From the NCBI RefSeq assembly GCF_000026545.1, contig NC_011601.1: DNA of 64,000 nucleotides. The stretch is one strand, 5' to 3'. This document shows, piece by piece, positions 20,197 through 39,578 of the stretch. This DNA is from Escherichia coli O127:H6 str. E2348/69 (GTDB taxonomy: Bacteria; Pseudomonadota; Gammaproteobacteria; Enterobacterales; Enterobacteriaceae). The translations under genes and the position numbers were made by a program. Within the stretch, counting starts at the first letter, position 1. Every line of letters begins with the position of its first letter. Under the pieces are notes generated by a model that was not told the origin of the DNA, did no database searches, and was given only the letters and a program-made list of their open reading frames with translations.

Positions 20197-20709
20197 TTAA
20201 ACGGTATGATATTTAATTCTGGCGGCCTCAAAAGCCGCAGCGGCAAGTTCGGCAGTGTCATGGTATCCAAGGTTAATACACTTTCCAGACGCATTAATTC
20301 TTGCTCTCCATTTCCCGTACTTAGCATCCCAAGACACGCCACGGTATCCAGATTTATTATTCTTCTGAATTTTCCTGTTCTGCATATTTTCGGAATGAGT
20401 GACAAGACGAAGATTTGATATCCGGTTATCTGTTCTTACCCTGTTGATGTGATCAATAAAACCATCGGGCATGGTGCCATAAACAATCAACCATGCCAGT
20501 CTGTGAGCAGGGTATGCTTTACCATTAATCATAATCATTAAATACCCATCAGAATTTATTGATGAGCATTTCTTGAAAGCAAAACGAGAGTTCCATGTCA
20601 AAGTGGTCCTCTCTCTCCCCTGCCTCCATCTCCAGTGAAAGTCGCCTGATGATGGATTGTAATCAACAACAGAAAGCACCATTTCTGGCGTTAATTTTAT
20701 TTCTTTCAT
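20197..20709 (-). CDS. HNH homing endonuclease with AP2-type DNA-binding domain
   Basis: HNH-type His/Asn motif (HINRVRTDNRISNLRLVTHSEN) and AP2-like SGYRGVSWDAKYGKWRARI. Confidence 0.75.
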   Translation of the reverse strand: MKEIKLTPEMVLSVVDYNPSSGDFHWRWRQGRERTTLTWNSRFAFKKCSSINSDGYLMIMINGKAYPAHRLAWLIVYGTMPDGFIDHINRVRTDNRISNLRLVTHSENMQNRKIQKNNKSGYRGVSWDAKYGKWRARINASGKCINLGYHDTAELAAAAFEAARIKYHTV

Positions 20710-22691: not shown

Positions 22692-23056
22692 TATTGGATT
22701 CTCTGCATCATGAGAAAGACAATCATGGCGGCGCGGAGGGGATTTTCATGTATAGCTCGCTTAGATTTACAGTAGGCCACACCGCGTGCACCCCACTCGT
22801 CTTCATCGAGATTGATAATGCTAATCCTGTATTTTTCAATAATCGGCCATGCGGCTGCTGGGTTTGCGCATGGGTTAAAGGATCCGCGCTCAACTTCTAC
22901 TTCAACTGCGTCTCCGTTTACAATGTCTCCCTCAAATGAGACAAACACCATATCGCCATTCTCACCTTCTTTGTAATCCGGTGATCCGTTATGAATGGCT
23001 TCGAATACCGCCACGTTAATTTCAAAATCACTTAACTGTGAATAATCCATTGTCAT
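22691..23056 (-). CDS. Hypothetical nin-region protein
   Basis: ORF track 22691..23092 trimmed to ATG at 23056 with GAGGAA RBS. Confidence 0.45.
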
Positions 23057-23229
23057 TTCCTCGCACGATTTCTTAGCCACCGGATATCCCACAGGTGAGC
23101 CGTGTAGTTGAAGGTTTTTACGTCAGATTCTTTCGGGATTGGCTTGCGTTTATTTCTGGAGCGTTTCGTTGGAAGGTATTTGCAGTTTTCGCAGATTATG
23201 TCGGTGATACTTCGTCGCTGTCGTCTCAT
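23053..23229 (-). CDS. ninE: NinE-like protein
   Basis: Internal-start product [23 protein letters not shown]... matches lambda NinE. Confidence 0.75.
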
Positions 23230-23753
23230 TCTGCCATCCTGACGCCCTGCCCGATCGCCATCAATGCCGCTTTGGATACGGTAGTAAACATCCGTCGAGG
23301 ACTGATGAACGGTCGCCAAATCAGCAGCATGGAGCCTTTGCTGTTTCCCTTCTTCTCCAGCCCTGTCGATGGTTCGATAAAATTAATCCGTCCATCAGTG
23401 ATAATACGAACTTCGTCGACACTCTCCAGAGCCTTGCTGAACCATCCGACTGACATATCCTCTGGCACAAGCATAACTACCGTCTGTCGCTGTTGTATGC
23501 ACTGCTCAGCGGCTTTTTCCACCCACGGCCTGATATTGCTATACGGTGGGTTATTCCAGATTGCACCGTGGCTTATCCACTCAGAATTTAGCGCGTCGTC
23601 GGCCTCAGTTAGCCAGTGAGCACACAGAGCATTTTTGTCGCTCGCTGCCGAATCCAGCCAGAATCCAAACTCAATATCCAGTGCATCAAAAAGCCAAAGC
23701 GGCGTTTGCCAGCAGTCCTTGTCGTGTGCTGGCGTATTTGATTTGATAGTCAT
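23226..23753 (-). CDS. Phage DNA N6-adenine methyltransferase (Dam-like, NPPY motif)
   Basis: NPPY catalytic motif; start trimmed to MTIKSNT at 23753, overlapping ninB stop. Confidence 0.75.
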
Positions 23754-24190
23754 GCAGCCCGATCTCCCCATCGCGCTTTCCATTCGAGAGCTAGTCGCGC
23801 TTCGTCTGACCACTTAACGCCACGCTCTGTACCGAATGCCTGTATAAGCTCTAATAGCTCCGCAAATTCGCCTACACGCATCCTGCTGGTTGACTGGCCT
23901 ATTACCACAAAGCCATTCCCGGCAAGGTTAGGAACAACATCCTGCTGCTTTAATGCTGCGGTAAACACACACTTCCAGCTTTCTGCATCCAGCCAGCGAC
24001 CATGCCATTCAACCTGACGAGAGACGTCACCTAAGCATGCCCATAGCTTCCTGTTTTGGTCTAAGCTGCGGTTGCGTTCCTGAATGGTTACTACGATTGG
24101 TTTGGTTGGGTCTGGAAGGATTTGCTGTACTGCGTGAATAGCGTTCTGCTGATGTGCCGGAGATCGAATTTCAAAGGTTAGTTTTTTCAT
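23750..24190 (-). CDS. ninB: NinB (Orf-family recombination mediator)
   Basis: Translation from MKKLTFEIRSPAHQQ... essentially identical to lambda NinB. Confidence 0.85.
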   Translation of the reverse strand: MKKLTFEIRSPAHQQNAIHAVQQILPDPTKPIVVTIQERNRSLDQNRKLWACLGDVSRQVEWHGRWLDAESWKCVFTAALKQQDVVPNLAGNGFVVIGQSTSRMRVGEFAELLELIQAFGTERGVKWSDEARLALEWKARWGDRAA

Positions 24191-24263
24191 GACTTCCCTC
24201 TCCCCCAAATAAAAAGGCCTGCGATTACCAGCAGGCCTGTTATTAGCTCAGTGATGTAGATGG

Positions 24264-25640
24264 TCATACGTCCGCCCCTTGTGCATATCGTCTGCCACGC
24301 GCAGCAGGTGCATTTGATGCTGTGCAAATCTGTCTGGCTTCATCCTGGTCACATGCAACAAAGTGTCCGTTGCAGAACCGCTGGTAAACCGTACCAAGCG
24401 AGCCAAAACGGTTTTTCGTCACGATGATTTCAGCAAATGGCGCGGCGCTACTGTTCTCGTCATATACCGCTTCCCGATAGAGCATGATGATTGAGTCTGC
24501 ATCCTGTTCAATGCTTCCTGAATCACGCAAATCTGCGTTTGTCGGGCGTTTGTTTGGTCGCTTCTCAACATCGCGCGAAAGCTGACTCAGGGAGATAACA
24601 GGCGTTTTCAGGTCTTTCGCCATCGCCTTCAGGCTTCCGGAGATGTGAGCAATTGCAAGGTCGTTGCGGTCTGCTTTCGGCTTCTCAATCAGGCCAAGAT
24701 AATCCGCCATGATGAGTGACAGGTTTGGATTTTCCTGTTTGTGCCGTTCTGCGATTGAGCGTATTTCTTCGACCGATAACCGCGAGGCATCGACTACCCA
24801 TACATCCAAATCTGCAAGCTGATTCATGCCGTTAGCAACGCGCGCCCAGCCTTCGTCATCCATCGATGCAGGATTTCGCAGCACGCTAACCGACATCCTC
24901 CCGGCGTTGGCAATGCTTCGCTCTGCAATCTGCAATGCGCTCATTTCCATTGAGAAAATCAATACCCCGCGCCTGACGTCAGAACCAGGAAGAACGCGGC
25001 TTGCAACGCCTTCGGCAATCTTTAGCGCCAGTTCGGTTTTCCCCATACCAGGACGAGCGGCGATTATCACCAGGTCTTCCGCGTTCATCCCTCCGGTGAT
25101 GGCGTCAAGTTCTTCGATTCCGGTCTTCAGGGTATCTGATTCCTCTCCGTTCCTCAGACGCCTGTCAAGCGTGTCAGTGTAGTCAGTAATGATTTCCCCT
25201 AACCGTACAGGTTTTACCTCGTCACGGGGCTTTCTGATGGCTGAGAGACGCTTTACAAGTTCATCCATCGCCTGACTCGATGCGTCGATGGTTCCGCTCT
25301 GAATTGGTTCACGCATTTCATCCATGATTTCCAGCACCAGACGGCGGTGATAGTTATCCGCGACCATTCCGGCATATCCCTTCAGGTTTGCGGCGCTCGG
25401 GCAGTTTTTGCTGGTCATCAGGATTGAGGTGAAATGCTCCTCTCCGCACGCCTCGGCAACCATCAGCGCGTCGATTAGGTTTCTGTTTCTCGCCTGCTTG
25501 CGGATAACCTCGAAGGCTTTCCGGTAGAGCGGAATTGAAAACGCTTCCGGCTCCAGTGTTGCCAGAACGTCGCTGGCGGTTGGAGTTAATCCACCAATCA
25601 GCAGGCCACCGATAACACTCGCTTCGATATCCTGTCTCAT
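24264..25640 (-). CDS. Replicative DNA helicase, DnaB-like (replaces lambda P)
   Basis: Walker A GMGKTE and DnaB-type C-terminal domain. Confidence 0.85.
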
Positions 25641-26584
25641 GCAATCCCCCTGTCTGCAAACTTCCCTTCCCGTACTCCCGTTAACGAATCTTCCCTCAGC
25701 AGGTAATCAAAATCTGCCGTCCAGCCAGTGTCGTTGTCTCCGAAGTAAAACGGCTTGGCCTGATGCACAAACGCCCTGACATACGCTCTGAAACCGTCCA
25801 CGTTTGGCGTTTTCAGTTGCGGGATGATTTTCTTCAGGCGGCGTTTGCGTTTCTCGTTGACCGCAACAGCGTGTGGCAGTCTGTCACCGACTTCGGTGTT
25901 GTAGGCGTTCAGGAAGGATTCGTAGTCGATTCGTTCTGCCTTGCGACGTTCAGGTTTAACCTGCCCATCGCCTCCCCCATTGGGGGGTAGGGGGGTATTA
26001 TTTATATTCTTGTTAATACCTTCTTGTTCATCATGTGCGGTTGTTTGTGCGGCTTCATGTGCGCTTTCATGTGCGGCATGTGCGCTGAAAGCCGCGCCAT
26101 TACTGGCTTCGTCATGTGCGGCATCATGTGCGGTTGTTTGTGCGGCTTCATGTGCGGGTAAATTGTCCATTTTTTGAGCATATTCATGGTAATTTGTGAT
26201 GGTGATCACACGACCTTTTTGCTTCTCTCCATCAATGGAGATCATCCCCTCTTTCACAAAAACCTGAAGCATCCGCTCAACCTGATCACGGCTTGCTGGC
26301 TTGCCATGTCTGTCGCATAACTGAAGACCTAAATCAGCTGCTGTCACAACCAGTTGACCGGGTTGCAGATGCCATTCATGACCTTTGAAATTCGCTTTGT
26401 ATGGCTTTCTGGCGGCATTCAGGAGAAGGTTTTCCCACAGGGTGCGAAGATAAACATCTTTCGCCCATGACTGTTTCAGAATGCTCCGGTACAACGGAAT
26501 GTAACCAGTTTTCTGGTTCTCCATCCTGTTGCTCCTGCGCTCGTGTGCGGCGCTGAAATCGTAGATTTTTGCTGTATTGCTCAT
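25637..26584 (-). CDS. O: Replication initiator O-like protein (iterons within coding sequence)
   Basis: N-terminus [10 protein letters not shown] similar to lambda O; internal repeated [11 protein letters not shown] peptides correspond to DNA iterons. Confidence 0.7.
26029..26158. repeat. Origin-like iteron array (two clusters of ~12-bp repeats, core catgtgcgg) with adjacent AT-rich tract
   Basis: Direct repeats tcatgtgcgg / ttgtttgtgcgg / cttcatgtgcgg seen inside the O gene; AT-rich stretch at ~25997-26027. Confidence 0.6.
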
Positions 26585-27526: not shown

Positions 27527-27543
27527 TTAGTACATGCAACCAT

Positions 27544-27607
27544 TATCACCGCCAGAGGTAAAATAGTCAACACGCACGGTGTTAGATATTTATCCCTTGC
27601 GGTGATA
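27544..27607. promoter_or_regulatory. oR1-oR2-oR3 operators with overlapping pR/pRM (lambda-type)
   Basis: tatcaccgccagaggta, caacacgcacggtgtta, tatcccttgcggtgata read directly; match lambda oR sites. Confidence 0.85.
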
Positions 27608-37830: not shown

Positions 37831-38269
37831 GATACCCTTCAAACGATATCTACCTTCACCCCGTAAAAGATAAGTTTGGCAGCACATTTGCCCTATCTAC
37901 TCATTTTTCCTGCAACAGGTTGAAATCTCAACACGGTCAGAAAACGCTGATGACTAAACAGCCCTGGGCCGGGCGATGTAACCATCACACACAATCCTGA
38001 TCGCGAAATATGGCGTGACTTGATACTTCACTCCACAATGCTTTCCTTGATGAATTCGCAGGCCCGTGATACACGGGACAGGTCGCTGAATTACGACAAT
38101 GCCCTGGAAATCAGCGAGCCGTGTATCCAGAGTACATTTGAGCGACTGTACCAGAACATGAATGAGGCGTTTGGATTAGGCGATTATTAGCAGGGCTAAG
38201 CATTTTGGTATTATTATTTTCCGGTTGAGGGATATAGAGCTATCGACAACAACCGGAAAAAGTTTACGT

Positions 38270-39517
38270 TTATATTGCTGAAGGTACTGGCGTTTCCATC
38301 ACTATTTGCTCACGTTTTTTACTCAGGAAGAAAATGCCAAATAGCAACATCAGGCAGACAATACCCGAAATTGCGAAAAAAACCGTCTGGTAGCCTGCGT
38401 GGTCAAAGAGTATCCCAGTCGGCGTTGAAAGCAGCACAATCCCCAACGAACTGGCAATTTGAAAACCAATCAGAAAGATCGTCGACGACAGGCGCTTATC
38501 AAAATTTGCCACGCTGTATTTGAAGACGGATATGACACAAAGTGGAACCTCAATGGCATGTAACAGCTTCACTAATGAAATAATCCAGGGGTTAACGAAT
38601 AGCGCGCAGGAAAGGATACGCAACGCCATAATCACAACACCGATAAGTAATGCATTTTTTGGCCCTACCCGATTCACAAAGAAAGGAATAATCGCCATGC
38701 ACAGCGCTTCGAGTACCACCTGGAATGAGTTGAGATAACCATACAGGCGCGTTCCTACATCGTGTGATTCGAATAAACCTGCATAAAAGACAGGAAAGAG
38801 TTGTTGATCAAAAATGTTATAGAAAGACCACGTCCCCACAATAAATATGACGAAAACCCAGAAGTTTCGATCCTTGAAAACTGCGATAAAATCCTCTTTT
38901 TTTACCCCTCCCGCATCCGCCGCTATGCACTGGTGATCCTTATCTTTAAAACGCATGTTGATCATCATAAATACAGCGCCAAATAGCGAGACCAACCAGA
39001 AGTTGATATGGGGACTGATACTAAAAAATATACCGGCAAAGAACGCGCCAATAGCATAGCCAAAAGATCCCCAGGCGCGCGCTGTTCCATATTCGAAATG
39101 AAAATTTCGCGCCATTTTTTCGGTGAAGCTGTCAAGCAAACCGCATCCCGCCAGATACCCCAGGCCAAAAAAGAGCGCCCCCAGAATTAGACCTGCAGAA
39201 AAATTGCTTTGCAGTAACGGTTCATAAACGTAAATCATAAACGGTCCGGTCAAGACCAGAATGAAACTCATACACCAGATGAGCGGTTTCTTCAGACCGA
39301 GTTTATCCTGAACGATGCCGTAGAACATCATAAATAGAATGCTGGTAAACTGGTTGACCGAATAAAGTGTACCTAATTCCGTCCCTGTTAATCCTAGATG
39401 TCCTTTCAGCCAAATAGCGTATAATGACCACCACAGCGACCAGGAAATAAAAAAGAGAAATGAGTAACTGGATGCAAAACGATAGTACGCATTTCTGAAT
39501 GGAATATTCAGTGCCAT
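38270..39517 (-). CDS. cscB: Sucrose:H+ symporter CscB
   Basis: 12-TM MFS permease translation recognised as CscB. Confidence 0.9.
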   Translation of the reverse strand: MALNIPFRNAYYRFASSYSFLFFISWSLWWSLYAIWLKGHLGLTGTELGTLYSVNQFTSILFMMFYGIVQDKLGLKKPLIWCMSFILVLTGPFMIYVYEPLLQSNFSAGLILGALFFGLGYLAGCGLLDSFTEKMARNFHFEYGTARAWGSFGYAIGAFFAGIFFSISPHINFWLVSLFGAVFMMINMRFKDKDHQCIAADAGGVKKEDFIAVFKDRNFWVFVIFIVGTWSFYNIFDQQLFPVFYAGLFESHDVGTRLYGYLNSFQVVLEALCMAIIPFFVNRVGPKNALLIGVVIMALRILSCALFVNPWIISLVKLLHAIEVPLCVISVFKYSVANFDKRLSSTIFLIGFQIASSLGIVLLSTPTGILFDHAGYQTVFFAISGIVCLMLLFGIFFLSKKREQIVMETPVPSAI

Positions 39518-39578
39518 AATTACCTGCCTGTCGTTAAAAAATTCATGTCCTATTTAGAGATAAGAGCGGCCTCGCCGT

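Follow-up and report, generated by a model that had tools for sequence, protein, structure and literature searches.

The dam gene in the nin region of the argW prophage of Escherichia coli E2348/69 very probably encodes an active, minimal AdoMet-dependent GATC N6-adenine methyltransferase, an orphan enzyme which would belong to the delayed-early genes of the PR operon and would top up the GATC methylation of the phage DNA. It is an already known gene of a known family and is correctly annotated in the public records. The window analysed here is the whole stretch of 64,000 nucleotides. Family, motifs, predicted fold, orphan context and operon position were established in this analysis, while the GATC specificity and the expression linked to induction are taken from the literature on orthologues and homologues.

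The dam gene and its neighbours

The open reading frame of dam covers 528 nt on the minus strand (23226..23753) and codes for 175 amino acids, with the start codon ATG at 23753..23751 and the stop codon TGA at 23228..23226. The original prediction gave these coordinates, the NPPY motif and the neighbours ninB and ninE correctly; the strand, left out there, is the minus strand. An identical 528-nt CDS, named phage N-6-adenine-methyltransferase, is present in the RefSeq annotation of E2348/69. An alternative reading frame starting with GTG (23226..23813) comprises 195 amino acids, and its 20 extra residues are all located outside the Pfam match, which starts at residue 4 in the form of 175 amino acids and at residue 24 in the form of 195. 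The features of this region are as follows.

23226..23753, minus strand: dam, phage N-6-adenine-methyltransferase (PF05869 / TIGR01712), putative orthologue of M.EcoVT2Dam (family profiles, RefSeq, orthologue alignment)
23541..23552, minus strand: codons of the catalytic motif IV, N68-P69-P70-Y71 (family alignment)
23750..24190, minus strand: ninB, Orf-family recombination mediator, upstream neighbour of dam (PF05772, E 2e-54)
23053..23229, minus strand: ninE, downstream neighbour of dam (PF05322, E 1e-42)
23750..23753, minus strand: ATGA overlap of the ninB stop TGA (23752..23750) with the dam start ATG (23753..23751)
23226..23229, minus strand: ATGA overlap of the dam stop TGA (23228..23226) with the ninE start ATG (23229..23227)

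The NPPY codons at 23541..23552 read ATACGGTGGGTT on the plus strand, the reverse complement being AACCCACCGTAT. The ATGA overlaps at the ninB/dam and dam/ninE junctions suggest translational coupling of the three genes. Junctions of this type and a tight packing of genes are typical of nin regions (PMC8022706).

Family membership and conserved residues

The dam protein matches the Pfam family PF05869, "DNA N-6-adenine-methyltransferase (Dam)", over the profile positions 1-167 of 169 (E 8e-65, 218 bits, cut-off 28.1) and the NCBIfam equivalog TIGR01712 over its positions 1-165 of 165 (E 3e-79, 264 bits, cut-off 97). In addition, it is matched by phrog_111, 'DNA methyltransferase' (E 8e-88). 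Chance can be dismissed as a source of the PF05869 and TIGR01712 scores. PF05869 is the sole Pfam family reported at E <= 0.01, the classical Dam family PF02086 giving no match, and both the MT-A70 Pfam domain and the DPPW motif are absent, the motif of this protein being NPPY. NPPY occupies residues 68-71, and the earlier description of the gene product as a solitary and intact N6-adenine methyltransferase is supported.

The conservation of single residues was judged in an alignment of 59 diverse family members which are 30-79% identical to the dam query. Six residues are invariant in this alignment (T17, D34, N68, P70, R122 and F125) and eight are near-invariant, that is, kept in at least 90% of the 59 sequences (P18, A37, W59, P69, Y71, L95, W104 and N137), with P69 and Y71 reaching at least 95%. 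The dam protein contains all of them. A disruption of the catalytic motifs, named beforehand as the finding that would speak against an enzyme, is not seen in the alignment of the 59 sequences.

Prophage setting and orphan status

A mosaic prophage at argW (tRNA-Arg), whose ends are marked by intS and torI, is contained for the most part in the window (positions 1 to about 38200) and extends past the window start; the window also holds the adjacent host genes csc, dsdA, emrKY and evgAS. The prophage mixes a lambda/P22-like early region with genes for a contractile tail and baseplate (sheath initiator, baseplate J, spike).

From intS to torI, the annotated genes of the prophage include no restriction endonuclease, a statement at the level of annotation which leaves room for an unrecognised nuclease. 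The only nucleases annotated are RusA and the products of two HNH genes, and the latter are read as homing-type. The genes next to dam encode NinB, NinE, NinX and NinF, so that the absence of a partner restriction gene, as originally claimed, agrees with the annotation.

Some further features of the window may be mentioned. A tRNA-Thr (TGT), a tRNA-Asn (GTT) and an HNH endonuclease gene (20197-20709) are located at 19987-20709 between the Q antiterminator and the lysis genes; in Stx phages, tRNAs and toxin genes occupy the position between Q and the lysis genes. Beside the prophage, dsdA (about 43622-44946) is frameshifted according to RefSeq, and the neighbouring gene for a permease of the GntP/DsdX family is truncated. 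The csc region (38257-43100) contains the sucrose-utilisation genes, namely cscA and genes for a LacI-family regulator, a sugar kinase and an MFS transporter.

Characterised relatives

The product of orf32 of the Stx2 phage VT2-Sakai, which like the dam protein consists of 175 amino acids, is identical to it in 172 of 174 positions (differences I60V and M173R), and the gene occupies the same slot between ninB and ninE. As orf32 is the sole methyltransferase annotated in the VT2-Sakai record, we infer that it corresponds to M.EcoVT2Dam. This enzyme was cloned by Radlinska and Bujnicki in 2001 and, according to the papers which cite that work, is reported to be GATC-specific (cited in PMC6602927, PMC7556043). 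The same gene is found in 933W-like phages, Phi24B and Min27. In contrast to the Stx phage VT2-Sakai, the carrier in E2348/69 is a non-Stx argW prophage of EPEC, whose early region resembles those of P22 and lambda and which possesses genes for a contractile tail. As a 99%-identical copy was, according to reports, already cloned in 2001 and found to be specific for GATC, the discovery value of the gene itself is small.

Two further phage enzymes, T1 Dam (M.EcoT1Dam) and the orf13 product of HP1 (HP1 Dam, M.HinHP1Dam), are members of PF05869 like the dam protein and have NPPY, D34 and R122/F125 in common with it. Both are orphan enzymes too, but they are only 34-36% identical to the dam protein. 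T1 Dam, which belongs to a virulent phage, possesses an N-terminal extension of 45 residues and an internal insertion, both missing in the dam protein; HP1 is a P2-like phage whose methylase gene ends the early operon. As Auer and Schweiger reportedly described in 1984, T1 methylates its own DNA in dam-negative hosts. The HP1 enzyme is listed among the phage Dam enzymes (PMC7556043).

A member from a different host is PamA of the mosaic prophage phi11 of Staphylococcus aureus (141 aa, PF05869 with E 6e-30, 34% identical to the dam protein). Its NPPY is located at residues 64-67, its gene follows replication genes, and GATC is the methylated sequence. PamA renders genomic DNA sensitive to DpnI when supplied on a single-copy vector, and point mutations in NPPY abolish this effect (PMC12435837).

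Outside the family, the alpha-class enzymes E. coli Dam, T4 Dam and DpnM (PF02086) show no sequence-family match to the dam protein, and the structural overlap comprises 105-108 core residues. They consist of about 240-280 amino acids, their motifs are arranged in another order, and they contain an insertion for DNA recognition, a domain of its own. The GATC specificity common to both Dam groups is said to have been regarded as convergent by Bujnicki and co-workers in 2001. Two groups of candidates were rejected. The non-specific adenine methylases Hia5/Hin1523 are not counted as relatives, as they have been described as akin to the E. coli/T4 Dam group (PMC3299994). M.EcoPA8orf6770P / M.EcoGV is not the same gene either: it is an MT-A70 enzyme with DPPW which depends on a partner protein, and in Stx phages its gene is located close to the int end.

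Operon position and expression

On the minus strand, a PR-like promoter is followed by cro, cII, a small hypothetical gene, the replication protein gene, the gene for a DnaB-like helicase and a terminator-like hairpin. The second part of the order consists of ninB-dam-ninE-ninX-ninF, a small hypothetical gene, a DUF1364 gene and rusA-ninH-Q. The two regulatory elements are as follows.

27542..27570, minus strand: PR-like promoter (TTGACT, 17 nt, GATAAT) upstream of cro, likely source of the dam transcript (consensus scan; function deduced from position)
24215..24238, minus strand: tR2-like intrinsic terminator (8-bp stem, 6 GC pairs, T run) between the helicase gene and ninB (consensus scan; function by analogy to lambda tR2)

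At 26027-26169, inside the gene for the replication protein (25637-26584, minus strand), a CATCATGTGCGG-like repeat with a period of roughly 12 bp occurs in four copies and encodes a repeated peptide. These copies look like origin iterons within an O-like gene, as in lambda.

A promoter of its own was not detected for dam, since the consensus scan gave no match between the helicase gene and dam. The only two matches in 9 of 12 positions are located inside dam and just downstream of it, and the seven promoter-like hits in the dam region are fewer than the 9.7 +/- 3.1 found in shuffled sequence. From the position behind the tR2-like terminator in the PR operon and the lack of an own promoter, it follows that the dam product would most likely be made during lytic growth and not in the lysogen. 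In the Stx phage Phi24B, the same 528-bp dam gene changed significantly on induction with norfloxacin, and four of the five genes identified by CMAT and followed by qPCR showed a lytic pattern, the exception being lom (PMC3342100).

The opposite reading, that lysogens produce the methylase and that it controls host or prophage genes epigenetically in the manner of PamA, is improbable. It draws on the fact that PamA, a member of the same Pfam family, alters host gene expression and virulence by its methylase activity (PMC12435837, PMC13076061), and on the detection of the Phi24B Dam protein in lysogen cultures by an antibody-based screen, on which the authors speculated about a part in lysogeny maintenance but left the role in lysogeny open (PMC3342100). 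Such expression is difficult to reconcile with a gene that is located behind a terminator in a CI-repressed PR operon and has no promoter match directly upstream. Furthermore, S. aureus is not known to have a host Dam, so that the mark set by PamA is new to that host. In E. coli, GATC is methylated in any case, and a change in host expression is not to be expected in a dam+ strain. The Phi24B gene changed on induction and is not among the three genes called lysogen-expressed (PMC3342100). In STEC strains with identical copies of dam, no extra motif is attributable to this gene; apart from GATC and CTGCAG, the sole motif found was assigned to another enzyme (PMC6602927). In view of the repressed PR operon, the tR2-like terminator, the lack of a promoter and the induction data of Phi24B, the suggestion of the original prediction that such methylases can alter host gene expression in lysogens is unlikely to hold for dam.

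Predicted fold and target recognition

The AlphaFold2 model of the dam protein, calculated on the alignment of 59 sequences (pLDDT 95.4, pTM 0.91), is a compact alpha/beta core with the class I Rossmann-like fold of AdoMet methyltransferases, in which D34 ends strand 1 and NPPY directly follows strand 4 (residues 64-67). According to this model the protein is a bare Rossmann catalytic core without a separate target-recognition domain. A search of the PDB with the dam sequence and the 59-sequence profile revealed no family member among the solved structures. Hits to SdiA and Med31 are due to chance, and Med31 happens to carry 'WCNPPYS'.

The top fold match of the model is PCIF1/CAPAM, the cap-specific m6Am RNA methyltransferase (11.3, 144 residues aligned). 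It is followed by Erm38 (10.0), M.BseCI (9.7), MmeI and M.TaqI (9.6 each), CamA (9.1), HsdM subunits of type I systems (about 9) and E. coli Dam (8.5, 107 residues aligned). METTL3-METTL14 appears only at rank 50 of the Foldseek ranking, with a probability of 0.20. PCIF1 probably stands at the top only because PF05869 has no solved structure. PCIF1/CAPAM and the gamma-class DNA enzymes M.TaqI and M.EcoKI show 13-17% identity to the dam protein. They differ from it in their size of 380-750 amino acids and in extra helical or target-recognition domains, and the substrate of PCIF1 are RNA caps. In a published grouping, PCIF1 and the methylase domains of DIRS1 are placed together with M.TaqI and M.EcoKI ('group 2', Iyer et al., PMC4738411), which fits the list of fold matches, and the DIRS1 methylase domains are picked up by the PF05869 profile (PMC3783388). 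The DNA would likely be contacted by the conserved segment with R122, F125, N137 and K139 and by the N-terminal segment with W15, T17 and P18.

A bare core raises the idea of a different or relaxed specificity at native levels, directed to non-GATC DNA, single-stranded DNA or RNA, with GATC methylation as an artefact of over-expression. This idea is highly improbable. Apart from the predicted lack of a target-recognition domain, it is favoured by the nearest solved structure being that of an RNA cap m6Am methyltransferase, PCIF1/CAPAM; M.TaqI, M.BseCI, MmeI and CamA, all of them DNA enzymes, score almost as well, however. An MT-A70 prophage enzyme described as 'GATC Dam-like' turned out to methylate 16S rRNA when paired with its partner protein PNB-2. 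Results with cloned enzymes come from over-expression, which can lead to off-target methylation, a caveat which was raised for another prophage methylase (PMC10810198). The rRNA methylase, though, belongs to a different family with DPPW, whereas dam belongs to PF05869 and carries NPPY. GATC methylation has moreover been reported for members of PF05869 from several hosts (VT2, PamA, T1 and HP1), and the result for PamA was obtained with a single-copy vector and active-site mutants as controls (PMC12435837).

Similarly, there is only a very slight chance that the enzyme acts on single-stranded intermediates, RNA or relaxed sites, or that a low expression in the lysogen tunes prophage induction. 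The latter idea is modelled on an unrelated MT-A70 prophage methylase which tunes prophage induction. This analysis gave no positive pointer to a substrate other than GATC duplex DNA or to such tuning.

Distribution

The dam gene is present in 1565 of 5426 complete E. coli genomes (about 29%), in up to five places per genome. Almost all of the 1565 carriers have it with at least 95% identity, and near-full-length copies exist in 1539. In the E2348/69 chromosome NZ_CP059840.2, the methylase gene is matched at two places. Among phage records, 244 encode a protein with at least 95% identity to the dam protein and 2129 give any match. In a library of 1.8 billion proteins the relatives form 8743 clusters at 50% identity.

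That dam is an inactive relic, carried passively in the mosaic of the nin region, where genes are non-essential (PMC8022706), is suggested also by the many truncated or fused versions of the protein in the databases but is hardly credible in view of the full-length frame, the intact invariant residues, the confident model, both overlaps being kept and the near-full-length copies in 1539 genomes.

Six proteins of 500-690 amino acids (P0139, P0140, P0143, P0148, P0157 and P0242) carry the PF05869 domain at the C-terminus, with about 320-530 unexplained residues ahead of it. They may be natural fusions of the minimal methylase, in which the other domain possibly provides DNA recognition or another activity.

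GATC sites and methylomes

The prophage part of the window (1-38193) contains 100 GATC sites, or 2.6 per kb, and is thus depleted in comparison to the 149 (mononucleotide) or 194 (Markov) expected sites. The adjacent host DNA (38194-64000) is not depleted; its 113 sites (4.4 per kb) compare with 99 (mononucleotide) and 115 (Markov) expected ones. In the stretch 3226-38200, GATC is the second most under-represented palindrome of 4 bp after CTAG. Counter-selection against GATC has been reported for enterobacterial phages, in line with this depletion. In the present prophage, the depletion coexists with a gene for a phage GATC methylase, and it leaves fewer sites at stake for this enzyme. Clusters of at least four GATC sites per 150 bp, as a possible methylation-controlled pac site or origin, were not found in the prophage.

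The predicted target of the dam enzyme, GATC, is also that of host Dam. For this reason, the lack of an additional methylated motif in the lysogen, which the original prediction had put forward as counter-evidence, cannot refute an activity of dam. As the motif is expected to be the same as that of host Dam and the enzyme is probably made only on induction, it would be invisible in the methylomes of lysogens.

Proposed function

The reading which we prefer is that of a GATC methylase active in the lytic phase. On induction or infection PR would be derepressed, and antitermination by N would carry the transcript past the tR2-like terminator into ninB-dam-ninE and onward to Q. The dam reading frame would be translated in coupling with ninB and ninE by way of the ATGA overlaps. 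In the enzyme, the adenine of GATC would be flipped into the NPPY pocket and would receive the methyl group from AdoMet. The most likely role of the methylase would then be to complete the GATC methylation of fast-replicating phage DNA, in which methylation by host Dam stays incomplete, so that the progeny would be fully methylated. Such a top-up role is proposed because the virion DNA of lambda and P22 is under-methylated by host Dam, possibly as replication outruns modification (PMC8022706).

E. coli already has Dam, and what the phage would gain from another GATC methylase is put forward here as a proposal. Fully methylated progeny DNA could resist methylation-sensitive restriction enzymes which cleave GATC in the next host. 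Full methylation could also avoid nicking of unmethylated GATC by MutH as well as binding of SeqA to hemimethylated DNA. All three advantages are plausible for the phage. The questions of interest concern the whole family: how an enzyme of 175 residues without a recognition domain reads GATC, and why a phage of a dam+ host carries a second GATC methylase.
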